From Comamonadaceae bacterium (GTDB lineage Bacteria > Pseudomonadota > Gammaproteobacteria > Burkholderiales > Burkholderiaceae_C): a stretch of DNA of 32,000 nt. Both the position numbers and the translations under genes were made by a program. Shown here piece after piece: positions 2,954-24,931 of the stretch. The first letter of the stretch is position 1, and the number at the start of each line of letters is the position of its first letter. Below the pieces are notes generated by a model. It was not told the origin of the DNA. It ran no database searches and worked only from the letters and a program-made list of their open reading frames with translations. The stretch lies in assembly GCA_947453645.1 (NCBI GenBank), contig CANGHG010000005.1, positions 6,496 to 38,495 of the forward strand. Reading direction: 5' to 3'.

Positions 2954-2986
2954 GGCCACCCCGCAACTTACCAACTGGAGAAATTC

Positions 2987-4024: not shown

Positions 4025-4027
4025 ACT

Positions 4028-4087
4028 GTCATTGCTCGCTTTGTCATTGCTCGCTCCGTCATTGCGAGTTTTGTCATTGCGAGCGAA
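4028..4087. repeat. Four tandem 15-bp units with core GTCATTGC(T/G)(C/A)G
   Basis: The GTCATTGC core starts at 4028, 4043, 4058 and 4073 (exact 15-nt period), directly after the cbbA stop. Confidence 0.85.
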
Positions 4088-4357: not shown

Positions 4358-4363
4358 GAGGTA

Positions 4364-5248: not shown

Positions 5249-5268
5249 GGTTTCAAAACGAGGATTCA

Positions 5269-5646: not shown

Positions 5647-5697
5647 AGGGCAAGACCTGCGTCAGCATCGGTCATGTGGCAAAGGTATGATGTTGTC

Positions 5698-7850: not shown

Positions 7851-7859
7851 GTGCGGCTT

Positions 7860-9751: not shown

Positions 9752-10159
9752 ATGAAACGTCAATGGATCAGTTCGGGCTCCAGCTATGAAGAACTCATAG
9801 GCTATTCACGCGCCGTGGTGGCGGGGGATTGGGTTTTCGTGTCGGGCACCACGGGCTTTGACTACGCCACCATGACCATTTCAGATGATTTGGTGGTGCA
9901 GACCGAGCAGTGTTTGCAAAACATTGCAACCGCCTTGGCAGAAGCTGGCTGCTCCCTGGATGATGTGGTTCGGGTGAACTATGTGTTGCCCAATGGCGCC
10001 GACTTTGAACCCTGTTGGCCAGTGTTGCGCCAACACTTTGGCATGGCCAAACCGGCTGCCATGGTTGTCACTGCGGGCTTGCTAGACCCGCGCATGAAAA
10101 TTGAAATCGAAGTGACGGCATGTCGATGTCTTCACGCATTACCGGAAACTGTGATCTAG
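9752..10159 (+). CDS. RidA/YjgF-family (Rid) protein
   Basis: The track start at 9746 is TTG; the ATG at 9752 is preferred. GYSRAVVAGDWVFVSGTTG and C-terminal KIEIEVTA are typical of the Rid family. Confidence 0.8.
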   Translation: MKRQWISSGSSYEELIGYSRAVVAGDWVFVSGTTGFDYATMTISDDLVVQTEQCLQNIATALAEAGCSLDDVVRVNYVLPNGADFEPCWPVLRQHFGMAKPAAMVVTAGLLDPRMKIEIEVTACRCLHALPETVI

Positions 10160-10210
10160 CTCAGCGCCCAACATGCTCCAAACAAGCTCAACATGGCGGT
10201 CAGGCCGACG

Positions 10211-10305
10211 CGAACGTTGACGCGAAGCGGCGGTGAGCGGCGACTGAGCCGCCGTGGTGAGCTTGAGGAAAGAGAGGTTGCTTGGGCCTACGGGCTCGCA
10301 ATGAC
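10211..10305. repeat. Third copy of the ~85-95-bp REP/MITE-like element seen at 4073-4357
   Basis: CGAACGTTGACGCGAAGCGGCGGTGAGCGGC...GGTTGCTTGGGCCTACGGGCTCGCAATGAC has the same end motifs and order as 4272-4357. Lies between the convergent Rid gene and purC. Confidence 0.8.
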
Positions 10306-10325
10306 ATCCACTTGCAATGGTGGGC

Positions 10326-11222
10326 TCAACCCCGCAACCTCGCCCACGCCTCTTGGTATTTGTCCGCCGTGAGTGAAATGACTGCCGAGGGCAATGCAGG
10401 CGCTGGCGCGGTTTTGTTCCATGGCTCGCCGTTCAGTTGCGCGGTTTCCAGCCAGTCGCGCAAATACTGTTTGTCAAAGCTCGGTGGGTTGGCGCCTTCG
10501 CGGTAAGCGTCTGCCGGCCAGTAGCGCGACGAGTCGGGCGTTAACACCTCGTCCATCAGCACCAAGGTGCCCTCGGGGCTCAGGCCAAACTCGAACTTGG
10601 TGTCGGCAATGAGGATGCCTTTGGCTGCCGCGATGTCATAAGCGCTTTCGTACAGCGCGATGCTGATGCTGCGGATGCGCTCGGCCAAATCTGCGCCAAT
10701 CATGGCCACGGTTTGCTCGAAGCTGATGTTCTCATCGTGCTCGCCCATTTCGGCTTTGGCCGCCGGCGTGAAGATGGGCTCGGGCAAGCGCGATGCGTTT
10801 TTCAAACCCGCAGGCAGGGGCACGCCGCACACCGATTGGCTCTCTTGGTATTCCTTCCAACCGCTGCCAGCCAAATAGCCGCGCACCACCGCCTCCACGG
10901 GGATGGGTTTCAAGCGGCGAACCAGCATGGAGCGCTGCACCACAAATGGTTTTTCAGCATCGCTCACCACGCTCTCAGGTGCGTCCCCAGTGAGGTGGTT
11001 GGGGCAAATATGGCCGAGCTTGTCAAACCAAAACAGCGCCATTTGGGTGAGCAGCGCGCCTTTGCCGGGGATGGGCTCGCCCATCACCACGTCAAACGCG
11101 CTGATGCGGTCGGACGCCACCATCAAGATGCGGTCGTCGCCCACGGCGTAGTTGTCGCGCACCTTGCCGCGAGCCAGCAATGGGAGGGAGCCCAGGGTGT
11201 GGGTGTGCAAGGTGGGGTTCAA
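10326..11222 (-). CDS. purC: Phosphoribosylaminoimidazole-succinocarboxamide (SAICAR) synthase
   Basis: [13 protein letters not shown] and DRISAFD motifs. The track start at 11375 would overlap fba by ~150 nt. TTG at 11222 overlaps the fba stop (TTGA), has AGGTGG upstream, and gives 298 aa. Confidence 0.88.
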
Positions 11223-12283
11223 TTCACCACCTGCGCCAACAGGCCTTGCTGGTATTTGGCCGCCATCATTTGCAAGGGCGTGCCCTTGATCTTGCTGCCT
11301 TGGCCCTCGCAACCAAACTCCAGGTAGCGTTGTTTGCAAATGCCTTTGGCGGCTTCGCGGGCGGGTTTGAGCCACTCGCGGGCGTCAAATTTGTCGGGGT
11401 TTTCAGCCAAGAATTGACGCACCGCGGCGGTCATGGCCAAGCGGATGTCGGTGTCGATGTTGATCTTGCGCACACCGTGTTTGATGGCTTCTTGAATTTC
11501 CGCCACAGGCACGCCATAGGTTTCTTTCATCTTGCCGCCAAACTGGTTGATGCGCGCCAGCAGGTCTTGCGGCACGCTGCTCGAACCGTGCATCACCAAA
11601 TGGGTGTTGGGAATGCGGGCGTGGATGGCTTTGACCCGGCTGATGGCCAGCACATCGCCTGTGGGCGGGCGGGTGAATTTGTAAGCGCCGTGGCTGGTGC
11701 CAATGGCAATGGCCAGCGCATCGAGTTGCGTGGCTTTCACAAATTGCGCGGCTTCCTCGGGGTCGGTCAGCATTTGGCTGTGGTCCAGTTTGCCCACCGC
11801 ACCCACGCCGTCTTCTTCACCGGCTTCTCCTGTTTCCAGCGAGCCCAGGCAGCCCAACTCGCCTTCCACCGTGGCGCCAATGGCGTGCGCCATGGCCACC
11901 ACTTTTTGGGTCACGCTCACGTTGTAGTCAAAGTCGGCTGGGGTTTTGCCGTCTTCCATCAGGGAGCCGTCCATCATCACCGAGCCAAAACCCAGGTTCA
12001 AGGCACCTTGGCAGATGGCGGGGGAGGTGCCATGGTCTTGGTGCATGACCAAGGGAATGTGGGGATAAGACTCGGTGGCGGCTTGAATCAGGTGTTTGAT
12101 GAAGGGTTCACCCGCGTATTTGCGGGCGCCTGCGCTGGCTTGCAGGATGACGGGTGCGCCCACCTCATCGGCGGCGGCCATGACGGCTTGCACTTGTTCG
12201 AGGTTGTTGACATTGAAAGCGGGAATGCCATAGCCGTGTTCGGCGGCATGGTCCAGCAGTTCGCGCATAGAAACTAAAGCCAT
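11219..12283 (-). CDS. fba: Class II fructose-bisphosphate aldolase, glycolytic/gluconeogenic copy
   Basis: 354 aa. 33 of the first 40 residues are identical to cbbA at 2987. In a pyk-fba-purC cluster. Confidence 0.92.
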
Positions 12284-12314
12284 GGGAGATGTCCTTCAAA
12301 AACAAAAGGGGGGG

Positions 12315-13748
12315 TTAGACCACTCGGCTGATTTTCAGCATGTTGGTGCCGCCGGGCGAGCCCATGGGCTCGCCGCAGGTGATGGCATACACATCGCCCG
12401 TGCTGACGATGCCGCGCTTTTTCAAATGCGCCTCGGCCTGGGCCAAGGCGGTGTCTCGGTCGGTGCTGGTGTCCATCAACAAGGCGTGGACATTGCGGTA
12501 CAGCGCCATGCGGCGCTGGGTGCGCTCGGTGGTGGTGAGTGCGTAAATCGGGATGTGGATGCGGTGGCGGCTCATCCAAAGCGGTGTGGAGCCCGACTCG
12601 GTGAGCGCCACGATGGCCTTGGCGCCCAGGTGGTGCGCGGTGAACAGCGCGCCCATGGCGATGGTTTGGTCGATGAACTGGAATTGCTTGCCCGTGAAGT
12701 CGGCGTCCAATGCCACTTCTTCGGCTTCTTCTGCAGCTCGGCAAATTTGCGCCATTTGCTGCACGGTTTCCAACGGGTATTTGCCCACGGCGGTTTCGGC
12801 GCTCAACATCACCGCGTCGGTGCCGTCCAGCACCGCGTTGGCCACGTCGCTGACCTCGGCGCGGGTGGGCACCGGGTTGGTGATCATGCTCTCCATCATT
12901 TGCGTGGCCGTGATGGCGACCTTGTCCATCTCGCGCGCCAGTTTGATCATGCGTTTTTGCAGCGCGGGCACAGCGGCATTGCCCACTTCCACCGCCAAGT
13001 CGCCGCGCGCGACCATGATGCCGTCGCTGGCTTTCAAAATTTCTTCCAGGTGGGGAATGGCCTCAAAGCGCTCGATCTTGGCGATCAAGCCAGGCTTGTG
13101 TTTGAAGGGCTCGGCGGCCACGTTGCACAGCTGCCGCGCCATTTCCATGTCGGTGGCGTTTTTCGGGAAGCTCACGGCCACATAGTCGGCCTGGAAGGAC
13201 ATGGCGGTTTTGATGTCCTCCATGTCCTTGGCCGTGAGTGCAGGGGCGGTCAGGCCGCCGCCTTGTTTGTTGATGCCTTTGTTGTTGGAGAGTTCGCCAC
13301 CCATCTTCACGGTGGTCAGCACTTGCTCGCCCTTGACCGCATCCACGGTCAGCACAATCAGGCCGTCGTTGAGCAGCAGCAGGTCGCCGGCTTTCACATC
13401 GCGCGGCAACTCTTTGTAGTCCAGGCCCACGCCTTGCAAGTCGCCTGGCTCGGTGCGCGAGGCGTCCAGCACAAAGGGCGCACCTGCTTGCAGCATGACC
13501 TTGCCTTCGGCAAATTTGCCGACCCGAATTTTGGGACCTTGCAAATCGGCCATGATGGCCACCGTCTTGCCTGCCTGCTTGGCAGCTTGGCGCACCAAGT
13601 TGGCACGGTCTACATGGTCTTGCGCCTTGCCGTGGCTGAAGTTCAGGCGCACTACGTTCACACCGGCTCGGATCATTTGCTCCAGCATGGCCAGATCGCT
13701 GGAGGCTGGGCCCAACGTGGCAACGATTTTGGTGGCGTGAATTGGCAT
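12315..13748 (-). CDS. pyk: Pyruvate kinase
   Basis: Track ORF trimmed to the ATG at 13748 (MPIHATKIVATLGPAS...NFSHG). 477 aa. MVARGDLAVE motif. Confidence 0.92.
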   Translation of the reverse strand: MPIHATKIVATLGPASSDLAMLEQMIRAGVNVVRLNFSHGKAQDHVDRANLVRQAAKQAGKTVAIMADLQGPKIRVGKFAEGKVMLQAGAPFVLDASRTEPGDLQGVGLDYKELPRDVKAGDLLLLNDGLIVLTVDAVKGEQVLTTVKMGGELSNNKGINKQGGGLTAPALTAKDMEDIKTAMSFQADYVAVSFPKNATDMEMARQLCNVAAEPFKHKPGLIAKIERFEAIPHLEEILKASDGIMVARGDLAVEVGNAAVPALQKRMIKLAREMDKVAITATQMMESMITNPVPTRAEVSDVANAVLDGTDAVMLSAETAVGKYPLETVQQMAQICRAAEEAEEVALDADFTGKQFQFIDQTIAMGALFTAHHLGAKAIVALTESGSTPLWMSRHRIHIPIYALTTTERTQRRMALYRNVHALLMDTSTDRDTALAQAEAHLKKRGIVSTGDVYAITCGEPMGSPGGTNMLKISRVV

Positions 13749-13897
13749 GGCTGTCCCTAGAAAAGAAGCGGCTATTGTCACACGCGTTTGAGTCTGTGCA
13801 GCCCCTTCCAGACGGTTCAAGTTGCAGTCAGTGTCACTCGTGAATTGCGGAAGTCGCACTTGCACAGCCCGCGACCACGCGGCTCTAAAGTGCCGCC

Positions 13898-14554
13898 ATG
13901 AACACCGCCACCATCGACTTTGACAGCCTGTTCCACAACAGCGCCCATCCAGGTTTGCAGGACTTGGCCAAACAAGGCCAGGTGCGGCATTACCGCAAAA
14001 ACACCTTGCTGATTGACGCGGGGGACACCGGGCAGGTCATTTACCTGGTGCTGTCGGGGCGTTTGCGCGAATTCGCCATGTCCAGCGACAGCCGCCCGCG
14101 CGAATTCACGCTGGCGGTGTTGGGACCGGGGCAGTTGGTGGGCGCCATGGCCTTGGACGGCGGTCCACATTGCGCCAGCGTGCTGACCTTGGGCCCTGTT
14201 AGCTGTGCGGTCATCAGCCGCGAAGCAGCACTGACCGTGCTCAGGCACAACCCGGCTTTGGCCATGGACTTGCTGCAACTGGCCTGGCAGCGGGTGCGTT
14301 TGGCCACTGAAACCACCCGTTTGGCGCTGTTTTCAGACGCGTACAGCCGCCTGAGCGCTTTTTTGCAGCGGCAAAACCCCTCAGGGCTGCAGGCCCGGGA
14401 CCACCCCATGACCCATGCCCAGATGGCGCAACAAATCGGCTGCAGCCGGGAAATGGTCAGTCGCATCCTGAAAGAACTGGTGACTGGGGGCTATGTGGTG
14501 CGGGAAACAGACAAGGTTTACCGGGTGTGCAAGCGATTGCCCCTACGGTGGTGA
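13898..14554 (+). CDS. Crp/Fnr-family transcriptional regulator
   Basis: 218 aa. N-terminal cyclic-nucleotide-binding-like fold (YLVLSGRLR...GPGQLVG). C-terminal HTH (THAQMAQQIGCSREMVSRILKEL). No N-terminal Cys cluster, so not an FNR-type Fe-S sensor. Confidence 0.8.
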   Translation: MNTATIDFDSLFHNSAHPGLQDLAKQGQVRHYRKNTLLIDAGDTGQVIYLVLSGRLREFAMSSDSRPREFTLAVLGPGQLVGAMALDGGPHCASVLTLGPVSCAVISREAALTVLRHNPALAMDLLQLAWQRVRLATETTRLALFSDAYSRLSAFLQRQNPSGLQARDHPMTHAQMAQQIGCSREMVSRILKELVTGGYVVRETDKVYRVCKRLPLRW

Positions 14555-14669
14555 GTGGTCAGCCTGAAAGAGGCTCGGGTGGCTACAATTGGGGATGGAC
14601 TGAGAAAAATGGCAAAGTCGTTTATCTCTAAGGACTTTCACTCATTTGGTGCCCTTTGTCACCCGCTTT

Positions 14670-15761
14670 ATGAACCAGCTCGAACAACCTATTGCCCCCA
14701 ATGAACCCATGCCCCACCGCAAGGTGATCCGCGAGTGGTTGATTCCCTTGTCCCACCGCATCACCGCTGGCGCCGTTTTGCTGCTGTTGGTGGATTACGC
14801 GGTTTGGGCCGCTTTGTTGACCGGCACCGTTTTATTCGAGGCTTGGTGGGCCAAGTTGCTGTGCGCGGGTGCCATGGGTTTCACCATCGGGCGCTTGTTC
14901 ATCATCGGCCATGACGCTTGTCACCAAAGCCTGACCCCGCACCGGGGGCTGAACAAATGGCTGGGCCGCATCGCCTTTTTACCCTCACTCACCACTTACA
15001 GTTTGTGGGACATCGGACACAACGTGGTGCACCACGGCTACACCAACCTCAAGGGCTTTGACTTTGTTTGGGCGCCACTCACCCAAGAAGAATTTGCCAA
15101 ATTGAATGTGATGGGTCGCTTGCTTGACCGCATCTACCGCAGCGGTTGGGCGCCAGGCCTTTACTACATGATTGAAATTTGGTGGAAAAAAATGGTGTTC
15201 CCCAGCGCCAAAGAAATGCCCACCCGCCGCCCCATCTTCATCAAAGACAGCTGGTTGATCACCGCTTTTGCGGCCCTGTGGTTGGGCGGCATCGTGTGGG
15301 CGGCAGACGCCACCAACCAGTCGGTGCTGTGGTTGATGTTGTTCAGCTTTGTGGTGCCCTTCTTGTTCTGGTGCGCCATGATTGGCTTTGTGGTTTATGT
15401 CCACCACACCCATGTGAAAGTCTCTTGGCACGACGACCGCAGTGCTTGGGCCAAAGCCCAGCCCTTTGTGTCCACCACGGTGCACCTGACTTTCCCATTG
15501 AAAATTGGCGCCCTGATGCACCACATCATGGAGCACACGGCCCATCATGTGGACATGAGCATCCCGCTGTACCGCTTGAAACAAGCGCAAACCAAATTGG
15601 AAACCTTGCTGCCTGGTCGCATCATCGTGCAACCCTTCTCATGGAGCTGGTACTTCCAAACCGCACGGGACTGCAAGTTGTATGACTTCACCCGCCAGTG
15701 TTGGACCGACTACAAAGGTCGCGCCACCAGCACACCGCCTGCTGGTTTGACCGCCGCCTGA
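14670..15761 (+). CDS. Membrane fatty-acid desaturase family protein (di-iron, three His boxes)
   Basis: His boxes HDACH, HNVVHH and HTAHH with hydrophobic segments between them. The track start at 14646 is TTG; the ATG at 14670 is preferred. Confidence 0.8.
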   Translation: MNQLEQPIAPNEPMPHRKVIREWLIPLSHRITAGAVLLLLVDYAVWAALLTGTVLFEAWWAKLLCAGAMGFTIGRLFIIGHDACHQSLTPHRGLNKWLGRIAFLPSLTTYSLWDIGHNVVHHGYTNLKGFDFVWAPLTQEEFAKLNVMGRLLDRIYRSGWAPGLYYMIEIWWKKMVFPSAKEMPTRRPIFIKDSWLITAFAALWLGGIVWAADATNQSVLWLMLFSFVVPFLFWCAMIGFVVYVHHTHVKVSWHDDRSAWAKAQPFVSTTVHLTFPLKIGALMHHIMEHTAHHVDMSIPLYRLKQAQTKLETLLPGRIIVQPFSWSWYFQTARDCKLYDFTRQCWTDYKGRATSTPPAGLTAA

Positions 15762-15777
15762 TTCTCACGAGACAGTC

Positions 15778-15803
15778 AAAAGCCCCGCCATGCGGGGCTT
15801 TTT
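15778..15803. terminator. Bidirectional rho-independent terminator between convergent desaturase and pgk
   Basis: AAAA-GCCCCGC-CAT-GCGGGGC-TTTTT: a 7-bp GC stem (15782-15788 / 15792-15798) flanked by an A-run and a T-run. Confidence 0.85.
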
Positions 15804-15822
15804 CATGGCCGTTGCAAAGGGG

Positions 15823-17013
15823 TCAGGCGGCGCGCTTCATCAAAATCTCAAACGCGGGCAGGGTTTTGCCCTCCAGCACTTCCAGAAAAGCGCCGCCGCC
15901 GGTGGAGATGTAGCCGATCTTGGACTCGATGCCGTACTTGGCAATGGCGGCCAAGGTGTCGCCGCCACCGGCGATGCTGAAGGCGGCAGAGTCGGCAATC
16001 GCGTGGGCCACCACCTTGGTGCCGTTCTCGAACGCCGCGAACTCGAACACGCCCATGGGGCCGTTCCACACGATGGTGCCAGCGGATTTGAGCTGCGCGG
16101 CCAATCGGGCGGCGGTGTCGGGACCGATGTCCAAAATCAAATCATCATCGGCCACCTCATGGGCTTGTTTCACCGTGGCCGGTGCATCTGCGCCAAAGCT
16201 TTTGGCGCAGACCACGTCGGTGGGAATCGGCACCTCGGCTCCGCGCGTTTTCATGGCGGCGATCACCGCTTTGGCTTCGCCCACCAAATCAGGCTCGGCC
16301 AAGGACTTGCCAATCTTCAAACCCGCCGCCAGCATGAAGGTGTTGGCAATGCCGCCGCCCACGATGAGTTGGTCCACGTTCTTGGCCAGCGCTTGCAAGA
16401 TGGTGAGTTTGGTGCTGACCTTGCTGCCGGCCACGATGGCGGCCAGTGGGCGCTTGGGGTTGGCCAAGGCCTTGGTGATGGCGTCGATCTCGGCCGAGAG
16501 CAGGGGCCCAGCACAAGCGATGGGCGCGAATTGCGCGATGCCATAGGTGGTGCCCTCAGCGCGGTGGGCGGTGCCAAAGGCGTCGTTGACATAGATGTCA
16601 CACAACGCGGCCATTTGGCGGGCCAGCTCTTCGCTGTTCTTTTTCTCGCCCTTGTTGACCCGGCAGTTCTCCAACATCACCACTTGGCCGGGGGCGACTT
16701 GCACGCCGCCCACCCAGTTGGCGATCACTGGCACCTCGCGGCCCAGCAGTTCACCCAAACGCTTGGCCACCGGGGCAAGCGAGTCTTCGGGCTTGAATTC
16801 GCCTTCGGTCGGGCGGCCCAAATGCGAGGTGACCATGACCGCTGCACCGGCAGCCAGCGCCATCTGGATGCAAGGCACCGACGCGCGGATGCGGGTGTCT
16901 TCGCTGATGTGGCCGTGGTCGTCAAACGGCACATTGAGGTCGGCGCGGATGAAGACACGTTGGCCTTGGGCTTTTCCTTGGGCGCACAGGTCTGAGAAGC
17001 GGAGGATGTTCAT
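15823..17013 (-). CDS. pgk: Phosphoglycerate kinase
   Basis: 396 aa. RADLNVP, SHLGRP and STGGGAFLE motifs. Confidence 0.93.
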
Positions 17014-17080
17014 GGTGTTTGTCTCGGTGGTTTATTTTTCTCGCATTCTAGGGATGATGGGCGCGCGCATCTACAGGGCG

Positions 17081-17929
17081 TCAATCCAACCACTGGAACA
17101 TCTGCTGAGCCACAGCCGGGAACTTCACATGCGGCTCTGAGGTGACGCAATAGCGCAAGGTTTTGCCCGCCGCGCATGACCTGAGTTGGCAGCCGTTGGC
17201 CTCGGTCTGCACCACTTCGCTGCACTGCATGCACTGGCCCCACCAGGTCGCTGCGCCCTCGCCAAAACCAGGAAACAAATCGTCTTTGGGGTTGTGCAAC
17301 ACGCTCACATGCAGGGGCGCAGGGCAGGCCTCTTCGGCCAAATCTTGGCTGGTGATGCCGGCTGCACTCACCACGATGCGGGCAGGCCGCACCGCCGCAG
17401 GTAATTGACGCACGGTCAAGCCGGTGCTCAAACTGCCGCCATCTGAATGCCCTGCAAACACCACCCGATCGGGGTTGATGCACCACTGGCTCATGACCTG
17501 GGGCACCACCTCGCTTTGCAGGCGCAAGGCGCGTCCCGACAGCGGGATGGCGGCGCTGTAAACCACCACATAGCCGGCTTCATTGGCTTGGCGGGTGAGC
17601 TGGTAATAGCGTTCGGCCAAATCATTTGAAAACCCGGCAGGCGGGTACATCATGAGCAGGCCATGTTGCTTGTTGGCTTGGTAGTTGCTGGGTGCCACCA
17701 CGCTGAACTTCAGCCCACTGGGGGTTGTCAAATCGGTGTGCCGCCCTGCTTGCCCACTGAGCGGCGAGGCACAACCTGGCGGCATGTCCTTCAAGCTGGC
17801 CGCCGCCTCGGGCAGTGGCGGCTTGAACCAAGACTGGGCCAGCAGATACAACAGGCCCAGCAACGCCAACACGGCCAACACCCGTTGACCGCGTTGCACC
17901 CCTGTGAGTGGCGGTTTGGGCTCAGTCAT
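17081..17929 (-). CDS. Secreted or membrane-anchored alpha/beta hydrolase, PHB-depolymerase-family (LpqC-like) esterase
   Basis: 282 aa. N-terminal hydrophobic anchor VLAVLALLGLLYLLA. Nucleophile elbow GHSDGG. Cys-rich C-terminus. Its ATG (17929) overlaps the copD-fusion stop by 8 nt (ATGACTGA). Confidence 0.6.
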   Translation of the reverse strand: MTEPKPPLTGVQRGQRVLAVLALLGLLYLLAQSWFKPPLPEAAASLKDMPPGCASPLSGQAGRHTDLTTPSGLKFSVVAPSNYQANKQHGLLMMYPPAGFSNDLAERYYQLTRQANEAGYVVVYSAAIPLSGRALRLQSEVVPQVMSQWCINPDRVVFAGHSDGGSLSTGLTVRQLPAAVRPARIVVSAAGITSQDLAEEACPAPLHVSVLHNPKDDLFPGFGEGAATWWGQCMQCSEVVQTEANGCQLRSCAAGKTLRYCVTSEPHVKFPAVAQQMFQWLD

Positions 17930-19796
17930 GTTGATGGATCGCGGCTGATTTGATTTCCCCTTCGAGGGCCAAGCTGTCGTAAACCGCTTTGAGTTGATCC
18001 AAGCTCAAGGCGCTGTGGCCCTCGTCCGAGCGCCAACGTGCACGCACAAAGCCATAGCGGTCAATTGAAAATTCCAAGCGTGCCACATCCACCTCCTGGT
18101 TTTGAAAATCGGGCGCGGCAAAGGTGCGTCTGTACTGCGCCCAAGCCTTGGCAATCACACCCTGGGGATCGGCCAGCAAAATGGCTTCACAAGGCCCTTT
18201 CACCAAACCCTCAAGCCATTTGGCGTCTGGCACCACCACCACCAATTGCGCGGGAAAGCCCTTCATGTTTTGCAGCAGATCGCGCACCCTTTGCAATTCC
18301 GAGGTTCGGTTGACGATGATCAGGTGCACCGCATGCAAACCACGCCATTCGGACAAGGACATGTAGTTGTTCTGGCCCACTTGAAAGCGAAAGTCGATGC
18401 TGGGCAACCAGGGGTTGAAAGGCGCGGGTTTGTCGCTGAGGCTGCGCGATTCGTGACCCAAGGACAGCGCAATCAGGTAATTGATCAAGTGCCAGCGCTC
18501 ATCCACCGACAGCACCGAGGCAAAGCCCGGCATGGCTCCTCGGCCATGGCTTAGCCACCAAAACATATCGCCATGGGTGTGCCAGCTCACATGGGGCTCG
18601 GTGAGGTTGGCCGCCGGGAGTTTGTTCAGCTGTGCCACGGGCCCATCGCCCAAACCGTGCAGGCCGTGGCAGTCGGTGCAGTACTGTTGGTACAAGTCTT
18701 GCCCCGCCATCACCGAGTCCGCGTCCAATCGGGCCGATGAATGCATGTAGGTGCTGGGGTAAGCCGGTATGGTGGTGGCAGGCAGGGCCAGCGCCAAAGA
18801 GGCCAATCCCCCCAAGGCCAACAAACCCCGCGCCATGCGCTTGAATCGGGTGCGCAACACCGCCCACAGCAGCAGCCCTAGCAAGCCCAAGGCCGCCGCC
18901 CACAGCAAAGCCTGGGTGGTGTTGGCCGGGTCTTGTTTCCAGGCCAGCACAGGGGCCCAGCGGATGGCAAAAGGCCACACGATCGTGTCGTGGGCAGCAG
19001 GCACGGTGGCGGCCAACATGCTGGCGCTGAACAACACGCCCAAGGCCAGGCCTGCCTCGCTGCTGAGCCAGGCTTGGGCCATGGCATGCGCGGCTGCGGA
19101 CTTTGACAACCAGCGGCGCAACTGCCAAGCACACCACAAGGCGGCGGCTACCAAACAGAGTTTGATCAACAACAACCAGCCATAGGGCGTGGCCAACAAG
19201 CCGGGCCAAGTGGCCACGCTCCAACGGCTGAGCATGACGCCACTGACCAGCAGCAAGCCCATGCCGGGCAAAGCCCATTTGGAAAACCAATGCAAGCGCT
19301 CACGCCAAGCGGCATGCACCACATCAGCCTGGCGTGCGGCCAAGAGCAGACCCAAGATGCCCGCCAACCACAACTGCGCGAGCAACACATGCAACACCGA
19401 AAGCGCTGACAGCCCCAAGCTTTCAGCCGAGGACACCACATGGCCGCTGAAGGCCATGCCGGCCATCACCAAGAACAGCAAGCCCCACAAAGCCCAGTGG
19501 CGGGGTCGCCATTGAAACAAGGCCAAGGCCAAGATCAGCAAAACGGTTTGTGCCAACAACACCCGACCCACATGGGTTTGCAAGGCATTCAGCCAAGGCT
19601 GCTCGCTGGCCATGAGGGCTTGCAAAGACCAGGACAAGTCGAGCACGCGGCCCAATTGCACCACCAGCGCAGCCACGAGCAAACGGCTGCACCAGCGTTG
19701 CAGCTGAGCAAGGGAGAGTCGTTGGTTCCACAACAGGCCCCACAGCAGCGCCATCAATGCGATTTGCAAGCCTCGCAGGACGGCAGCGGTGTCCAC
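17922..19796 (-). CDS. copD: CopD-family membrane protein fused to a class I c-type cytochrome domain and a C-terminal Cys-less thioredoxin-like domain
   Basis: The N-terminal ~345 aa are polytopic and follow copC. Next come CTDCH (CxxCH) with a downstream GAMPGF Met. The last ~190 aa have a Trx/AhpC-TSA-like pattern (IDFRF..MSLSEWRG..HLIIV, LLADPQGVIAKAW, EFSIDRYGFVRARW) with no CxxC. Start uncertain: GTG at 19796, 5 nt after the copC stop, is chosen; the track start is 19868; the ATG at 19754 is an alternative. Confidence 0.7.
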   Translation of the reverse strand: MDTAAVLRGLQIALMALLWGLLWNQRLSLAQLQRWCSRLLVAALVVQLGRVLDLSWSLQALMASEQPWLNALQTHVGRVLLAQTVLLILALALFQWRPRHWALWGLLFLVMAGMAFSGHVVSSAESLGLSALSVLHVLLAQLWLAGILGLLLAARQADVVHAAWRERLHWFSKWALPGMGLLLVSGVMLSRWSVATWPGLLATPYGWLLLIKLCLVAAALWCAWQLRRWLSKSAAAHAMAQAWLSSEAGLALGVLFSASMLAATVPAAHDTIVWPFAIRWAPVLAWKQDPANTTQALLWAAALGLLGLLLWAVLRTRFKRMARGLLALGGLASLALALPATTIPAYPSTYMHSSARLDADSVMAGQDLYQQYCTDCHGLHGLGDGPVAQLNKLPAANLTEPHVSWHTHGDMFWWLSHGRGAMPGFASVLSVDERWHLINYLIALSLGHESRSLSDKPAPFNPWLPSIDFRFQVGQNNYMSLSEWRGLHAVHLIIVNRTSELQRVRDLLQNMKGFPAQLVVVVPDAKWLEGLVKGPCEAILLADPQGVIAKAWAQYRRTFAAPDFQNQEVDVARLEFSIDRYGFVRARWRSDEGHSALSLDQLKAVYDSLALEGEIKSAAIHQHD

Positions 19797-19801
19797 GTTG
19801 T

Positions 19802-20158
19802 TCAGGGTTTGACTTTGAAGCCGAGTCGGCCTTTGCCAGGGTGGCCGTCTTTGGCCAAGATGGACCAATCCACTTGGTACTCATGGGCCTGGTGCGGGGG
19901 CAGGTTGATTTGCAAGACCTTGCCAGAGGCGTCCCACTGCAAGCTATTGGCGGGCAAGGGCAACACCTGCTGATCGGCCTGCACTTCGATGCGTGAGAAT
20001 TTTTTCTCAACCGGCTCAGAAAACCGCAACCGCAGTTGCTGAGGCGATTGGGCAATCACCGCATTCGCTGGCGGCTCGCTGTCAAGCAAATGGGCGTGCG
20101 CAGCGGCCAGCATGGGCAGGCACAGCCACAAACCGACAAAGACAGTTGCCAGACGCAT
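19802..20158 (-). CDS. copC: CopC-family periplasmic copper-binding protein (Cu(II)-site-only type)
   Basis: The signal peptide ends LAAA, followed by HAHLLDSEP (N-terminal His). A DGH motif lies near the C-terminus (AKDGHPGKGRLGFKV). No Met-rich Cu(I) motif. The ATG at 20158 is 2 nt after the pmoD-like stop; the track start at 20164 is TTG. Confidence 0.8.
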   Translation of the reverse strand: MRLATVFVGLWLCLPMLAAAHAHLLDSEPPANAVIAQSPQQLRLRFSEPVEKKFSRIEVQADQQVLPLPANSLQWDASGKVLQINLPPHQAHEYQVDWSILAKDGHPGKGRLGFKVKP

Positions 20159-20160
20159 GG

Positions 20161-20724
20161 TCAATGCACTTGCTGATCGGCTTGCTTGGCGATGTCTTTG
20201 TGCAAACGCTGACGACCCAGGGCCAAACCGCCCATGCCCAGGGCCAACAAAGCAATGGCCCCCAGGAAGTAATACAGCAACCCACCCCGTGGTTTGCCCA
20301 CCGCAAACGGGAACACCGAGGCGTGCTTTTGCCCTTCGCCGGCATAGACCAAGCCGACATAGTCGCCGTCGTCCATGAAGTCGTGACGCACCATCAGCGT
20401 GCCACGCGGGTAGGTGGCAGGCGGCAATTTGTACACCACGGGCGCCGCGTCCAAGGGACCGTCGGTTTTGCGAACAATCCGAAACTCCACGGGCATGTCG
20501 CGCAAAGTCAGGTCCACCATGTCGAGCACGATGATGGTGGGGCCTTTGTGCGGGATGTCTTCACAAAACTCGGTGCGTTGCGCGTCTTCTTGGTAGCCCG
20601 CGAAATGCATCATGTACGGGCCCACCGATAGCTTGCACATGTCTTGTTCCATGGACAAGCCACCGTGCGCCCAAGCGCCCAGGGCTGTCCATGAAAACGC
20701 CGCTGCAATCAGAAATCGTTTCAT
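20161..20724 (-). CDS. pmoD: PmoD/AmoD-like periplasmic cupredoxin-type protein with C-terminal membrane anchor
   Basis: Track ORF trimmed to the ATG at 20724 (7 nt after the xmoB stop). Signal peptide MKRFLIAAAFSWTALGAWA. Motif C-x7-M-x-H (CKLSVGPYMMH). C-terminal TM helix LLYYFLGAIALLALGMGGLAL. Sits between the B subunit and copCD, as amoD/pmoD does. Confidence 0.65.
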   Translation of the reverse strand: MKRFLIAAAFSWTALGAWAHGGLSMEQDMCKLSVGPYMMHFAGYQEDAQRTEFCEDIPHKGPTIIVLDMVDLTLRDMPVEFRIVRKTDGPLDAAPVVYKLPPATYPRGTLMVRHDFMDDGDYVGLVYAGEGQKHASVFPFAVGKPRGGLLYYFLGAIALLALGMGGLALGRQRLHKDIAKQADQQVH

Positions 20725-20731
20725 GCAGGGC

Positions 20732-21991
20732 TCACAGTGCGGTGAACGTGGGCAGGATGGGCCCGCCAATTTCACTCAAGCTGCGGTTGCCCGACTTGTC
20801 CACAAAGAACAGCAAGCCACCGAACTTGGAGTCCACGTCGGTCAAGAAGCTGACCAGTCGCTCGACTTCCCACAGCGCATCGCTGGCTTCCATCTTGATG
20901 TCACGGGTTTCACCAGGCATGAGTGGTTTTTGGTCGCTCAAGCCCAGGCCACCTCGGGCCACCAGGTCGCGTGGGTAATCGGCTGACACCGCTTTGTCGG
21001 CACCAGGCGCTTGTTGATTGACAAAGCGCAAGTTGGCCGTGGCGAACTCCAGGATGGTCACGGGTTCGCTGCCGTGGTTGGTCATGCGGGCCACCACGTG
21101 CATGGCGCGTCCGGGCACGTCGTAATTGGCCTTGAGCACCTTGACTTCCACATCGCCCTTGGCTTTGGGCAAGGGGTCGACCTTGTTGGTACCAGCTTGC
21201 AATGGCACGACATAGGGGTACTCGTGCTTGGCGTAGATGTAGCCGCCAAAGGAAAGGGCCACGACCACCACGCCCAAAATCACGCCCACCGTGATGTCGC
21301 GGTTGGTGATCAGCACGTCTTCACGGCCTTTGTTCAGCGCAATCCAGCGAGGTAACAACAAGGGGCGCACCAACCAGAACAACAACCAAAACGCGGCCAA
21401 GGCCAACCACACGCCATACCACTTGAGGGCGCGTGAAATACCGTAGTACTCCAGGTTTTCAATTTCAGCACCGTTCATGGTGGTGACTTTTTGTACAAAG
21501 TCGCCCTTGGTGCCTGTGACTTCAATCCACTGGCCAGGGCCCACCAAAGGTCCAGAGCCCTTGACCGACAACAGCGGGTGGATGTGGTGACGCCCAGGGA
21601 TGCGGCCTTTCATGACCAGCTTGAACTCATAGTCACGGCCCAACTCCAATTTGGAGAAGGATTGACGAGCGGGCATGCCGTTCAAATAGCTTTCCACACG
21701 AGTGATCATGGGGCCAGGTGCATAGGCCGACAAAAACACGGTGTCGGGCAGGCTGACCGCGTCGGGCCAGTCTTCCATCAAACGGAACTTGCCGATCAAG
21801 GTGAACTCTTCATTGACCTTGACGGTTTTTTTGTCGTAATGAACATCGTAGTACTGCACGGTGCGGGTGCGCAGGTAAGGCTCTTGCGAACGTTCACCAT
21901 GGGCCCAGGCGGACTCGGTGGCCACGCCTGCCAACACCAGCAAACCCAAACACAGCGCGAACAACTTGCTTATTTTTTGAATGAAATACAC
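20732..21991 (-). CDS. xmoB: Copper membrane monooxygenase subunit B (PmoB/AmoB family)
   Basis: Start re-assigned to the GTG at 21991 (AAGGGGA RBS; 26 nt after the xmoA stop). The track start at 22162 would overlap xmoA. The signal peptide ends ESAWA, followed by HGERSQEPYLRTRT (N-terminal His). HHIH lies ~105 residues later (HxH). Two central TM helices and a C-terminal beta-rich domain. 419 aa. Confidence 0.88.
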   Translation of the reverse strand: MYFIQKISKLFALCLGLLVLAGVATESAWAHGERSQEPYLRTRTVQYYDVHYDKKTVKVNEEFTLIGKFRLMEDWPDAVSLPDTVFLSAYAPGPMITRVESYLNGMPARQSFSKLELGRDYEFKLVMKGRIPGRHHIHPLLSVKGSGPLVGPGQWIEVTGTKGDFVQKVTTMNGAEIENLEYYGISRALKWYGVWLALAAFWLLFWLVRPLLLPRWIALNKGREDVLITNRDITVGVILGVVVVALSFGGYIYAKHEYPYVVPLQAGTNKVDPLPKAKGDVEVKVLKANYDVPGRAMHVVARMTNHGSEPVTILEFATANLRFVNQQAPGADKAVSADYPRDLVARGGLGLSDQKPLMPGETRDIKMEASDALWEVERLVSFLTDVDSKFGGLLFFVDKSGNRSLSEIGGPILPTFTAL

Positions 21992-22017
21992 GGTGAATCC
22001 CCTTGTGTGTTGGCGCT

Positions 22018-22857
22018 TCAAGCGTCTGCCTTGGTGCCCATCATGGCCATGACTTTTTTGTTGTTCGGCAGGAATTTCATGCTCGACATGGCAATGCCCA
22101 AATACCACCAGGCGTAGTGCATGAAGATGCAGATGAAGCCGCCGAACAAAGCCGACACCCAACTGGCCGAGTCACCAAAGGTGCGCAAGGTGCCGCGCTC
22201 AATGATGCGGATGTACTCGGGCGTGGCCGAGCGGGGATAGACATAGCCAATCAAGTCGGCCATGGAGGCCATCATGCCTTGGTGGCTGACGGGCACGTAA
22301 AACGGCGCAAAGATGGTGTAGTTGGAGGGGTAGAACAAAAACGCAAACGCAAAGCCGCCGAAGATGGCGGTGAACAAGGCGTTGCGAAACACCAGCAAGA
22401 ACACATCCAAGACGATGGCGCCAGCAATCATTTGCGCGGGCAACACCAGGTTCAAGGGGTAGTCGGTCCACCACATGAACGAGGCTGGGCGTGAGATGGA
22501 CACGGCCACCATCAAACAGGTGGCACCCACCGTGGCACCAATGGGCAAGCGAAAGTAAGTCCAGAAGATGCCTTGCAAGGCCGCCGGGAACATGATCATG
22601 ACCACTGGGCTCAAGAGCGGCCAGTACTGGCGGTCTTTCCAGTCCAAGAACATGTCCCAGTCGCCCGCCAACAGCAACACGTGCAAGTGGATGGCGCCGG
22701 CAAACAGCATGATGATGGCGGCGACCACGAACAATTCGAAGACGCGGGAGAAATGCAGGGCTTTGGGCGACAGACCTGAGACGCTTTCCACGGTATCGTG
22801 GGCGTGCGTTTGTCCTGCCGCAGCACCCCGAGGGTGTTGCAGTGTTTCTGTGTTCAT
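22018..22857 (-). CDS. xmoA: Copper membrane monooxygenase subunit A (PmoA/AmoA family)
   Basis: 279 aa. LLAGDWDMFLDWKDRQYWP, FYPSNY, and ATPEYIRIIERGTLRTFG match hallmark PmoA/AmoA blocks. AGGAA RBS. 26 nt after the xmoC stop. Confidence 0.9.
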   Translation of the reverse strand: MNTETLQHPRGAAAGQTHAHDTVESVSGLSPKALHFSRVFELFVVAAIIMLFAGAIHLHVLLLAGDWDMFLDWKDRQYWPLLSPVVMIMFPAALQGIFWTYFRLPIGATVGATCLMVAVSISRPASFMWWTDYPLNLVLPAQMIAGAIVLDVFLLVFRNALFTAIFGGFAFAFLFYPSNYTIFAPFYVPVSHQGMMASMADLIGYVYPRSATPEYIRIIERGTLRTFGDSASWVSALFGGFICIFMHYAWWYLGIAMSSMKFLPNNKKVMAMMGTKADA

Positions 22858-22883
22858 GATGAATTCCTAGGTGAGGAGACCGT

Positions 22884-23663
22884 TCAGGCCGTTTCGTTCT
22901 TGAAAACGATGGGCATGAGTTCGCGGAAACGCGAGATGATTTGCATCAACACGCCAGCGAGAGAGAGGGCGTTCCAGCCCAGTACCGCAAAGCCCCAGTG
23001 CAAGGGATGCGAGAAGATTTCTTCGGTCAACCAGTAAGCATGACCCCATTCGTTGTAGCCCAGGTTGGGCAAAATGAGGAAGGGGCCGACCACCGCGAAC
23101 ACGTGCATCAAGGAGATGCCTTTGCAGAATGCGGGGATGCGGGTCATGGCATACACAAAGCTGCCAATGCCAAACATGAGGTACATGGGGATGCATGCGT
23201 AAAACAACACCACATGGCTGGGTGTGATGGGCGTGTCGCGCAGCACGGTTTGGTGCCAGTTGCCGTCGCCTTCGCCAAAGAAGCTGCCAATCCAGTAGAA
23301 GGTGAAGGTGTAGACCACCAACCACATGGTCAGGTAGAAATAGCGCTTGAGTTCTTCTTCGGGGGTGATGGCGTCGATGTTGCGGTCACGCGTGAAGAAC
23401 AGGTAGACCTGAATCAGGGCCACGATGCCAAACAAAATGGGCAGCTGGGTCCAGAACAAGCGCATCCAAATGTCTTGGAAGATGGGTTCGGTGGAGTCCA
23501 GACCAGCGGACATGCCATACATCTGTTGGTAGACGCGGTAGGACACATAAACACCGGTCAGCACAATCATGGTGACCGCGAACCAGATGTAGCTCAGGGT
23601 GAAACGCGACGTGGTGTCGCGGCTTTCGGTGAGATGCAGATCTCGGCTGCTCAAGGTGGACAT
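22884..23663 (-). CDS. xmoC: Copper membrane monooxygenase subunit C (PmoC/AmoC family)
   Basis: The ATG at 23663 is preceded by AAGGAG-N7; the track start is 23720. 259 aa. GDGNWHQTVLRDTPITPSH (D-x3-H-x12-H) and NEWGHAYWLTEEIFSHPLHWGF (N-x3-H-x13-H) reproduce the two PmoC metal-site ligand patterns. Confidence 0.9.
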   Translation of the reverse strand: MSTLSSRDLHLTESRDTTSRFTLSYIWFAVTMIVLTGVYVSYRVYQQMYGMSAGLDSTEPIFQDIWMRLFWTQLPILFGIVALIQVYLFFTRDRNIDAITPEEELKRYFYLTMWLVVYTFTFYWIGSFFGEGDGNWHQTVLRDTPITPSHVVLFYACIPMYLMFGIGSFVYAMTRIPAFCKGISLMHVFAVVGPFLILPNLGYNEWGHAYWLTEEIFSHPLHWGFAVLGWNALSLAGVLMQIISRFRELMPIVFKNETA

Positions 23664-23858
23664 CGACGGACTCCTTTTGTTCGGTGTGAAAAACCGTTTA
23701 TCAACAATTAACCTTTGCATTTTTTGGACATAAGCCCCTTTGCGACAACGGTGTTTACACCTAGATCATGCAAGGTTTTTCATGTTTTTCAGCTGATCTC
23801 CTGGATATTTCAGGTAGCAATCGGCAATTTCATGCATTAAATTGCATGTTGATACCGA
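23664..23858 (-). promoter_or_regulatory. xmoC upstream leader/promoter region (AT-rich, with repeats); exact promoter not identified
   Basis: Hand count gives 41 of 100 G+C for 23721-23820, against ~54-68 in nearby coding samples. RBS AAGGAG at 23671-23676. Inverted repeat CATGCA-N6-TGCATG at 23831-23848. Direct repeat GTTTTTCA at 23775-23782 and 23784-23791. TGCATG or its near-variants recur. Confidence 0.4.
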
Positions 23859-24200
23859 CTACCAACCCAAGCCGATGTGCAAGGGCAAATAGACCGTCAT
23901 GCCCACCACGATGGTGCCCAGCACCGCCTGACCCTGGCCGCGTCGCCAAAAGTAAAAGGCCGCGCCCGTGGTTGCCGCGTAAATGCGGGCATCAGCAAGT
24001 GAGCTGATGAGTGCGCCTTGGCGCATGACGATTTCCGGGATGATGACCGCGCTCAAAGCCGCAATGGGTGCATAACGCAAGCCTCTGTCGGCCCAGGCAG
24101 GGAAGGGCAACTCCTGCTCGAACATGAAAAAGAAACAGCGGGTGACCACGGTCACGACGCCCAAGGCGGCCACAGTCAGGTAAATCCACCCATCGCTCAT
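23859..24200 (-). CDS. azlD: AzlD-family branched-chain amino acid transport protein
   Basis: 113 aa, hydrophobic. Overlaps the azlC stop by 4 nt. Classic azlCD pairing. Confidence 0.8.
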   Translation of the reverse strand: MSDGWIYLTVAALGVVTVVTRCFFFMFEQELPFPAWADRGLRYAPIAALSAVIIPEIVMRQGALISSLADARIYAATTGAAFYFWRRGQGQAVLGTIVVGMTVYLPLHIGLGW

Positions 24201-24931
24201 TGGCGCGCCTCCTCACCCGCCAAAGGCGTGCGTTCCAGCAGCAAACACATGGCCACGGCGGCCGCGATGGCCACCACGATGTTGAGTTTCAAGGGCAGGG
24301 CATAAGCCGCCACCGCCGCTGCACCCGAGACGCCCGCCGACACCCGGCGCAAGCGGCTGTCTGAAAGCGAGCACATGACGCCTACCAAGGCCAGCACGCC
24401 TGCAAATCCCAAGCCCCAACTGCCTGGAATTTGGCTGGCCATGAACACGCCCACCAGGCTCGATATTTGCCAGCCAATCCAATTCAAAAAGCAGTTGCCC
24501 GATAAATAGGCCATCTCGGCACGCTGGCCTGACGCGTCTTGTGCGGGCTGTGAAAAGCGCCTGACAAACATCACATAGCTCATGTCGGCGGTGATGTAAC
24601 CCAGGCACATGCGTTGCCACCGCGGCCAGCTCATGAGGTACTGGCGCAGGTGCATGCTGAACACCACAAAGCGCAAATTGACACAAAACGCGGTGGCCAG
24701 CACCACCCAAAATGGCGCGCCCACCGCCAGCATGGGCGTGACCGCCAATTGCGAACTGCCTGCATAGACCAGCAGCGTCATGGCGGTCGACACCTCCACG
24801 CTCAAGCCCGACTGCACCATGGCCACACCGGTCATCAAACCCCAGGCCCAGATGCCAGGTGCGACCGACAAAATATCACGCATGCCCTCTTTGAAGGCCG
24901 GGTGCTTGTAGTTGGCAGGATCGAAAAACAT
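24197..24931 (-). CDS. azlC: AzlC-family branched-chain amino acid permease subunit
   Basis: Track ORF trimmed to the ATG at 24931 (MFFDPANYKHPAFKEGMRD...), 7 nt after the fmt stop. Polytopic. AGSSQL motif. Confidence 0.8.
   Translation of the reverse strand: MFFDPANYKHPAFKEGMRDILSVAPGIWAWGLMTGVAMVQSGLSVEVSTAMTLLVYAGSSQLAVTPMLAVGAPFWVVLATAFCVNLRFVVFSMHLRQYLMSWPRWQRMCLGYITADMSYVMFVRRFSQPAQDASGQRAEMAYLSGNCFLNWIGWQISSLVGVFMASQIPGSWGLGFAGVLALVGVMCSLSDSRLRRVSAGVSGAAAVAAYALPLKLNIVVAIAAAVAMCLLLERTPLAGEEARQ

Follow-up and report, generated by a model that had tools for sequence, protein, structure and literature searches.

A copper membrane monooxygenase (CuMMO), XmoCAB, is encoded on the minus strand of the 32,000-nucleotide stretch analyzed here (the window; contig CANGHG010000005.1 of the Comamonadaceae bacterium assembly GCA_947453645.1, positions 6,496 to 38,495), and four tightly packed genes lie immediately downstream of it. 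We think it likely that this downstream region (17081-20724) is the distal half of a 6.8-kb CuMMO cassette, xmoC-xmoA-xmoB-pmoD-copC-copD(cyt c-Trx)-est, where cyt c-Trx denotes cytochrome c and thioredoxin-like domains, and that the cassette occurs at varied genomic sites in freshwater Burkholderiales, most likely with one upstream regulatory region. The seven-gene cassette is conserved, relocatable, and of a known operon type; its seventh, esterase-like gene appears to be an addition not reported before. CuMMOs oxidize methane and ammonia, and how they are loaded with copper, which reductant serves them physiologically, and what their operon-encoded accessory proteins do are unsettled questions; moreover, large orphan CuMMO groups from Burkholderiales, Bradyrhizobium, and Nevskiales have no assigned substrate. 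These orphan groups retain the methanotroph and nitrifier set pmoD-copC-copD(cyt c-Trx), which moves with xmoCAB as a compact cassette. The genes and domains of the cassette in the window are as follows.

22884-23663, minus strand: xmoC, CuMMO subunit C (Pfam AmoC, E 6.4e-88; NCBIfam AmoC_BACT score 343.9 against a cut-off of 319)
22018-22857, minus strand: xmoA, CuMMO subunit A (Pfam AMO, E 1.7e-80)
20732-21991, minus strand: xmoB, CuMMO subunit B (Pfam Monooxygenase_B, E 1.4e-137)
20161-20724, minus strand: pmoD/amoD-family gene, 187 amino acids (match to PDB 6CPD over residues 28-143, E 2.9e-18)
19802-20158, minus strand: copC, periplasmic Cu(II)-binding protein, 118 amino acids (Pfam CopC, E 2.6e-19)
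18777-19796, minus strand: copD, membrane part, residues 1-340 (Pfam CopD, E 7.7e-16)
18441-18764, minus strand: copD, periplasmic monoheme cytochrome c domain, residues ~345-452 (Pfam Cytochrome_CBB3, E 1.2e-12)
17967-18404, minus strand: copD, C-terminal thioredoxin/peroxiredoxin-fold domain, residues ~465-610 (Foldseek)
17081-17929, minus strand: est, predicted extracytoplasmic alpha/beta serine hydrolase, 282 amino acids (alignment, AlphaFold2, and Foldseek)

The boundaries of the cassette emerge from blastn comparisons with the closest relatives (loci L088, L007, L006, and L027), in which homology extends from 17081 to 23790-23848, that is, from exactly the est stop codon to ~130-190 nt upstream of xmoC. 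On one side of the cassette lie azlCD, fmt, def, and secDF, and on its other side pgk, pyk, fba, and purC; none of these housekeeping genes was found flanking the cassette in any relative's locus. Because homology is limited to this block and the flanks are not shared, the seven genes and their upstream region constitute a discrete 6.8-kb cassette. Marks of mobility were sought at its ends, where neither flanking direct or inverted repeats nor a tRNA was present. The sole flank similarity to a relative lies around purC (window 9761-10705 versus L007 15301-16097); in L007 this gene and est are ~4 kb apart and their relative orientation is reversed, which suggests local rearrangement around the cassette. 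Identity to L027 is 99% for XmoA, 93% for XmoC, 87% for XmoB, 73% for PmoD, 63% for CopC, 62% for Est, and 50% for the membrane part of CopD, the cytochrome c and thioredoxin-like domains of CopD still being at 72-75%.

Within the block the accessory genes abut or overlap. Read directly on the minus strand, the xmoB stop codon (TGA, 20734-20732) is separated from the pmoD-like ATG (20724) by 7 nt; the pmoD-like stop (TGA, 20163-20161) lies 2 nt before the copC ATG (20158), with an alternative TTG start at 20164 that overlaps this stop; the copC stop (TGA, 19804-19802) is followed after 5 nt by the copD GTG (19796); and the copD stop (TGA, 17924-17922) is overlapped by 8 nt by the est ATG at 17929 (ATGACTGA), the est stop ending at 17081. 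A first-pass annotation, made from the sequence without database searches, had reported these same spacings, including the possible TTG overlap, and they are exact to the base. Its four gene identities also hold, PmoD by the 6CPD match, CopC and CopD-cytochrome c by Pfam, and the alpha/beta hydrolase by fold and alignment. We placed the copD start at GTG 19796 because the resulting N-terminus (MDTAAVLRGLQIAL) lines up with those of close homologs; some public gene calls start the gene at ATG 19754, yielding 610 amino acids (P0121). The corresponding junctions are also tight in relatives from the clade at 95-99% XmoA identity (7; 2-12; 1-5; and -2 to -11 nt), and 23 related loci share the order xmoC-A-B, pmoD-family gene, copC, and copD on one strand.

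The spacing, the signal-free junctions, and the cassette-wide homology block are consistent with a single transcription unit of all seven genes, as far as sequence can indicate. The absence of any hairpin or gap between the accessory genes, which the first-pass annotation had noted, was borne out by a consensus scan that found neither a promoter-like nor a terminator-like site in the four accessory junctions; such scans are weak tests, and the promoter scan covered the sigma-70 consensus only. Across 15500-24500 we recovered 16 terminator-like matches, all of them intragenic and not enriched over the 11.5 +/- 3.4 expected from shuffling. Recognizable Shine-Dalgarno sequences precede xmoC, xmoA, and xmoB, and none precedes the four accessory genes. 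This difference points to distinct expression regimes, as would be expected if the accessory genes formed a separate unit with its own internal promoter, for example within xmoB; in some ammonia-oxidizing bacteria (AOB), amoC and amoAB are on separate transcripts, and the weak, sigma-70-only scans leave room for such an arrangement. Nevertheless, there is no space for intergenic promoters where genes are 7, 2, and 5 nt apart or overlap by 8 nt, the junctions carry no signals, and their tight spacing is conserved, such that we regard separate units as unlikely. Since the accessory genes abut or overlap and lack Shine-Dalgarno sequences, translational coupling is probable, and within the single unit that we favor the accessory proteins would probably be made in this way at levels below those of XmoCAB.

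Upstream of xmoC, the alignment with eight close relatives drew attention to two elements.

23831-23848, minus strand: dyad CATGCA-ATTTAA-TGCATG, a perfect 6-6-6 arrangement
23745-23783, minus strand: conserved block of ~40 nt, ATGAAAAACCTTGCATGATCTAGGTGTAAACACCGTTGT

Both TGCA half-sites of the dyad are kept in all eight aligned relatives, and homology to L088 and L006 begins at 23848, i.e., at the dyad, which forms the outer limit of the cassette homology. The scan gave no sigma-70 consensus match in the block at 23745-23783. Together, the dyad and the block are probably the operator plus promoter region of the unit, a putative assignment based on their conservation and position. A search of 16800-24300 for Rfam families returned none.

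We next consider how far the genes stay together in other genomes, for which the seven window proteins were compared by tblastn with 79 genome loci. Among CAB-order loci with full flanks, PmoD was present in 24/24, the CopD fusion in 17/24, CopC in 16/24, and Est in 15/24 (one a weak partial match), and the Est-positive loci span several proteobacterial classes; by comparison, each of the four was found in 0/16 fully flanked loci of pxmABC order. Unsupervised clustering of neighboring genes in 43 related CAB loci and the window gave a similar picture, in that only the four accessory families and a PCuAC-like gene recur across lineages. Gene order is not fixed: in some loci Est is placed between xmoB or pmoD and copC, and in others the accessory module lies upstream of xmoC, with linkage still kept. 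That linkage persists while order varies argues for functional coupling. The first-pass annotation had proposed that recurrence beside related xmoA genes would support the unit, and we found the linkage in both the closest and the distant relatives; the full seven-gene order also appears at L087, where CopD identity is 31%. Contigs of 27-30% GC (L094, L095, L097, and L101; MDTA01120981, CEUQ01126768, MDTD01148271, and MDSW01039992) carry xmoCAB-pmoD-copC-copD fusion-est with XmoA identities of 50-52%, and, to judge from this gene content, a low-GC lineage also has the whole cassette.

Several observations nevertheless weigh against treating the seven genes as one closed and dedicated unit. At the 3' end, neither the window nor any of eight relatives has a terminator after est, and the pgk start lies 67 nt further on, across a gap that contains TAGAAT; with pgk so near and no terminator before it, read-through past the seven genes is possible, and the unit may not end at est. 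The Bradyrhizobium loci (57-63% XmoA identity) retain the other accessory genes, pmoD, copC, and the copD fusion, and lack Est except for a weak partial match at L025; tblastn also found it missing from the Nevskiales loci. Nor is Est strictly exclusive to CuMMO loci, a possibility that we rejected given that the homologs P0265, P0266, and P0268 (35-37% identity) have no CuMMO on the available DNA; one such homolog lies beside pqqBCDE (L171), another beside an acyl-CoA synthetase gene (L173), and the third at a contig edge. In metagenome loci anchored on the CopD fusion, most CopC and CopD-fusion pairs have no CuMMO nearby, and the task of this pair is general copper handling that is not specific to the monooxygenase. 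Finally, a copCD mutant of Methylosinus trichosporium OB3b is reported to indicate that CopCD is not critical for copper uptake or for the copper switch (review PMC7558416).

One may postulate from the last two points that the genes downstream serve copper resistance or homeostasis in a generic way and have become neighbors of xmoCAB by chance, with no functional tie to it; CopC and CopD are indeed frequent outside CuMMO organisms (PMC6189053, and our own loci), and the OB3b mutant had no clear phenotype. This explanation is highly improbable in our view, however, given that linkage is kept in Beta-, Alpha-, and Gammaproteobacteria and in the low-GC lineage despite reordering, that the homology block stops exactly at the est stop codon, that the junctions of 7, 2, 5, and -8 nt are conserved, and that PmoD family members occur only in CuMMO-bearing genomes (PMC6189053). 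We therefore retain the reading of a conserved cassette in the discussion of its individual parts.

The monooxygenase itself belongs to an orphan Burkholderiales group that is ~45% identical to pxm-type XmoA. The closest XmoA proteins (96-99% identity) come from metagenome-assembled genomes (MAGs) of freshwater Burkholderiales and Comamonadaceae, and XmoA sequences at greater distance are found in Methylibium, Bradyrhizobium, Rhodoferax, Extensimonas, Xanthobacteraceae, and Nevskiales. XmoB passes the NCBIfam cut-off for bacterial ammonia monooxygenase (AMO; 520.8 versus 336), as XmoC does, and XmoA falls slightly under that of AmoA_BACT (283.4 versus 290). No hao or cycAB genes occur within the 32-kb window. 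Relatives in MAGs are annotated as AMO, although signs of nitrifiers are absent from the window. With XmoC and XmoB passing the AMO equivalog cut-offs, MAGs of this kind are labeled as ammonia oxidizers without support, and there is a risk of systematic mis-annotation. One locus, L167, was considered as a true AOB or methane-oxidizing bacterium carrying the CopD fusion; this was not confirmed, and its XmoA is also under the AMO cut-off. Regarding gene starts, we rejected the xmoC start at ATG 23720 given in the list of open reading frames (ORFs) in favor of ATG 23663, preceded by the Shine-Dalgarno sequence AAGGAG, the stretch upstream showing indels in relatives; xmoB probably starts at GTG 21991, 26 nt past the xmoA stop, to judge from its Shine-Dalgarno sequence and the lengths of homologs.

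The protein encoded directly after XmoB matches PDB 6CPD, which is PmoD solved from Methylocystis sp. Rockwell. Its translation has an N-terminal signal peptide (MKRFLIAAAFSWTALGAWA) and a C-terminal transmembrane helix (LLYYFLGAIALLALGMGGLALG), with a cupredoxin-like periplasmic domain between them. Two types of copper motif have been described in this family, the CuA-forming Cx7MxHxnC of AmoE and the alphaproteobacterial methanotrophs and the Cx8MHxnC of AmoD (Fisher et al. 2018, PMC6189053), and the window protein, with C30-x7-M38-M39-H40...C54, satisfies both. A survey of the related loci revealed that the AmoD-type Cx8MH is the conserved form in most homologs, and that the extra Met is limited to the clade of the window and to Rhodoferax, Acidovorax, and Extensimonas loci (L034, L043, and L029). 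The first-pass annotation had described a single amoD-type gene in place of two; there is indeed one PmoD-family ORF between xmoB and copC, and the motif conserved in its family is of the AmoD type.

CopC has the signature of a Cu(II)-only type. Its translation includes a predicted mature N-terminal His (cleavage inferred between AHA and HLLDSEP) and, toward the C-terminus, a DGH motif (within KDGHPGKG), and the mature protein is without any Met and hence lacks a Met-rich Cu(I) site; against the NCBIfam model copper_CopC it scores 83.8, under the cut-off of 95. The CopD fusion is a 624-residue protein of three domains, for which an AlphaFold2 model built on 28 homologs reached a pLDDT (per-residue confidence) of 87.7 and a pTM (predicted TM-score) of 0.80. 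The model contains ten transmembrane helices, corresponding to the eight-helix CopD core and two extra helices. Two His residues, H119 and H136, are invariant in the 28 aligned sequences, and they correspond to the two conserved CopD His that are required for copper uptake by Escherichia coli YebZ (PMC11923076). In the heme domain, which matches the cytochrome c552 structure 9vr0 (E 1.3e-12) and for which Foldseek gave a TM-score of 0.81, the site C373-x2-C376-H377 and Met422 are invariant in the same alignment.

The C-terminal domain of CopD resembles Prx1 (4xcs, E 1.5e-4), DsbE (3gl3), and CcmG (2b1k) in Foldseek, with E values ranging from 1e-4 to 1e-2, and distant members of the fusion family have precomputed PF00578 AhpC-TSA matches. 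The active-site Cys of the thioredoxin fold is missing in all 28 aligned members, the window reading VNRTSELQRV at this position. We rejected the idea that the domain is an active Sco1/SenC protein or peroxiredoxin, as it has no CxxxC or peroxidatic Cys and shares nothing but the fold with these proteins. The domain is nearly confined to the fusion architecture: among 1.84 billion proteins it forms 84 representative clusters, in which it is almost always at the C-terminus of proteins of 600-700 amino acids. The tail of CopD (17925-17940, residues ~619-624), which is disordered in the model, reads HQHD here and HAH or HVH elsewhere, with H621 invariant; this His tail is a candidate copper hand-over site. 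A tblastn search with CopD against plasmids yielded weak cytochrome c matches only.

These results alter the picture of CopD that had been drawn in the first-pass annotation. The fusion of CopD to cytochrome c stands, both domains being recovered by Pfam, and the third, Sco1/thioredoxin-like domain (~465-610) had been overlooked. Heme c had also been taken for an extension peculiar to this locus, which cannot be upheld, since ~4% of CopDs, including that of OB3b, are already known to carry a cytochrome cbb3-type domain together with a C-terminal Sco1- or thioredoxin-like domain (PMC11923076).

The first-pass annotation had inferred a 'self-contained copper-delivery/electron-transfer module' from these genes, and its electron-transfer part can be stated more specifically as a relay in which CopD heme c would reduce the CuA site of a dimeric PmoD, which in turn would serve as the physiological reductant of the CuMMO. 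The heme domain and a PmoD with the full set of CuA ligands (C30, M38, H40, and C54) are encoded two genes apart and reside in the same compartment; a role as electron-transfer partner has been proposed for PmoD (PMC13058606); and disruption of pmoD in OB3b leads to a copper-dependent growth defect (PMC6189053). Many loci with CopC and the CopD-cyt c-Trx fusion have neither CuMMO nor PmoD, however, which implies that heme is intrinsic to CopCD and that the heme domain serves the CopCD system generally; a role as electron donor to the monooxygenase is therefore less probable, and hypotheses about this donor are constrained accordingly. In addition, the Cx8MH motif of the family is not of the class shown to form CuA (Fisher et al., PMC6189053), and CuMMO loci with PmoD and Est occur that have no CopD fusion nearby (L032, L036, and L169). 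We consider the relay quite improbable for these reasons. In the copper-handling role that we prefer, CopC would capture Cu(II) in the periplasm with its His1/Asp/His site and deliver it to the CopD channel at the two conserved His there; copper redox state and hand-over at the periplasmic face would be handled by the heme c and by the thioredoxin-like domain, which is Cys-less and ends in the His tail; and membrane-tethered PmoD would bind copper through Cys, Met, and His at or near the monooxygenase.

The cassette can be compared with several characterized systems. Extended operons have been published for OB3b (pmoCAB-pmoD-copC-copD-pCuAC) and for betaproteobacterial AOB (amoCABED-copCD) (PMC6189053; PMC13058606), and the likeness to AOB gene order that the first-pass annotation had recognized agrees with the extended amo and pmo operons of Fisher et al. 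2018 (PMC6189053). The OB3b operon has the same order as the window, with C-A-B, one PmoD-family gene, copC, and copD, and its CopD is reported to bear the same cytochrome c and Sco1/thioredoxin-like extension (PMC11923076). It ends with pCuAC, whereas the window has est in this place, followed by pgk and with no PCuAC; the window enzyme, moreover, is not a methanotroph particulate methane monooxygenase, and its PmoD family has the motif Cx8MH rather than the Cx7MxH of alphaproteobacterial methane oxidizers. A PCuAC/LpqE-like gene follows in the relatives L001-L003, and L001 has both PCuAC and est. The Bradyrhizobium locus L015 reproduces the OB3b layout pmoCAB-pmoD-copCD-pCuAC; in this locus (B. 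manausense BR 3351), the one Bradyrhizobium locus in which downstream ORFs were read, a 188-residue PCuAC-like ORF ending in HHHHD (15859-16425) comes after the CopD fusion, and there is no esterase.

The betaproteobacterial amoCABED-copCD operon likewise places PmoD-family genes and copCD behind subunit genes in CAB order, and the AmoD-type motif is common to both, but it contains two PmoD paralogs (amoE and amoD) against one in the window, which is further set apart by the esterase-like seventh gene, an XmoA under the AMO cut-off, and the lack of hao and cycAB. With E. coli YobA-YebZ-YebY and Bacillus subtilis YcnJ, the window shares the His/Asp/His Cu(II) site of CopC and an eight-helix CopD with two conserved His on the periplasmic side (PMC11923076; PMC8689200). 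Unlike these systems, the window CopD has two extra transmembrane helices, heme c, and a Cys-less thioredoxin-fold domain, and the pair has no YebY or YcnI partner and sits inside a monooxygenase operon. Rhodoferax and Acidovorax loci (L034 and L043) have XmoCAB-PmoD-Est, with the window XmoA only ~47-49% identical to theirs. The Rhodoferax and Polaromonas xmoCABD clusters of Rochman et al. 2020 (ISME J 14:714) have reportedly been linked to ethane and propane oxidation; their hosts are Comamonadaceae that are neither nitrifiers nor methanotrophs, and, as in the window, a pmoD-like gene comes after xmoCAB.

The seventh gene, est, is the part of the cassette for which our literature search, which did not extend to Rochman et al. 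2020, found no report of an esterase beside CuMMO genes. Alignment of 24 sequences showed that GHS162DGG (G160-H-S162-D-G164), Asp216, His267, and eight Cys are invariant, five of these Cys lying in an insertion between Asp216 and His267; the N-terminus is a transmembrane anchor or signal in the window and a lipobox in distant members. The invariant triad, the Cys residues, and the N-terminal anchor or lipobox together lead us to predict that Est is an active, extracytoplasmic, disulfide-bonded serine hydrolase. An AlphaFold2 model (pLDDT 90.7) was matched by Foldseek to feruloyl esterase 8jh8 (E 1.1e-12; TM-scores 0.64/0.74), acetyl xylan esterase 9j07, and polyhydroxybutyrate (PHB) depolymerase 8daj. 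Est resembles these enzymes in its alpha/beta fold, GxSxG nucleophile elbow, and Ser-Asp-His triad, and differs from them in identity of only 14-20%, in belonging to no curated family, in its anchor or lipobox, in its Cys insertion, and in its linkage to CuMMO. Pfam gave no match to Est at E <= 0.01, and the 24 members yielded only sub-threshold generic matches, with PF10503 Esterase_PHB hit by 1/24 at E 0.089; in NCBIfam the polyhydroxyalkanoate depolymerase score was 25 bits against a cut-off of 150. A periplasmic serine hydrolase family with a predicted intact triad and no curated model is thus a recurrent neighbor of CuMMO genes.

Est tracks CuMMO rather than CopCD. It was found in 9/12 CuMMO-positive metagenome loci and in 0/24 long-flank loci with CopC and CopD only, and for this reason we rejected it as a CopCD partner. 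The loci L032, L036, and L169 point the same way, as they have XmoCAB-PmoD-Est without CopCD nearby, and the homologs P0271, P0264, and P0273 (30-36% identity) abut AmoCAB. Our best guess is that Est hydrolyzes a small ester or lipid ester in the periplasm, tied to the substrate or product chemistry of the orphan CuMMO. Two versions of this idea may be distinguished. In the first, put forward tentatively, Est would be a dedicated partner whose periplasm-facing activity is required for CuMMO in vivo, either through lipid or ester processing or by defining a substrate or product that involves an ester; its 8-nt overlap with copD and its location amid genes for copper proteins are suggestive of a role nearer the enzyme. 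Were this true, Est would be a CuMMO-associated factor like PmoD and would offer a handle on what non-methane, non-ammonia CuMMOs oxidize.

In the second version, Est would be a catabolic esterase of a CuMMO-fed pathway within the same regulon, converting, for example, an ester arising after subterminal alkane or ketone oxidation to alcohol and acid. The intact triad is compatible with this, as is the reported tie of Rhodoferax and Polaromonas relatives of this CuMMO group to ethane and propane oxidation; the closest structural matches are to short-chain carboxyl-esterases and PHB depolymerases, and the neighbors of distant homologs hint at an ordinary ester-to-acid-plus-alcohol role, with an acyl-CoA synthetase (L173) and pqqBCDE (L171) fitting acid and alcohol use. 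On the other hand, no Baeyer-Villiger monooxygenase, alcohol dehydrogenase, or other catabolic gene recurred beside the clusters in the neighbor clustering of 43 CAB loci and the window, and the gene overlaps copD and moves with the copper genes, often between xmoB, pmoD, and copC. Known ester-forming steps are cytoplasmic, whereas Est is predicted to be extracytoplasmic. We hold this catabolic role, too, to be possible and rather doubtful. In L171, the Est homolog (35% identical) and the adjoining pqqB/C/D/E-like genes occupy 2841-6773 and 7407-8288, a context that raises a possible link of the hydrolase family to periplasmic alcohol oxidation dependent on pyrroloquinoline quinone (PQQ). Cultured carriers include Bradyrhizobium diazoefficiens SZCCT0138, B. 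manausense SZCCT0118, Extensimonas soli H3M7-6, and Solimonas aquatica DSM 25927, and because cultured strains carry the hydrolase, its role is directly testable.

Elsewhere in the window, a phosphoribulokinase gene (2081-2953) is followed by one for a class II fructose-bisphosphate aldolase (2987-4024), which suggests Calvin-cycle genes. Downstream of the cassette, 11219-17013 contains a second fructose-bisphosphate aldolase gene, pyk, and pgk, the last two being separated by inserted genes for a Crp/Fnr regulator (13898-14554) and a fatty-acid desaturase (14646-15761).

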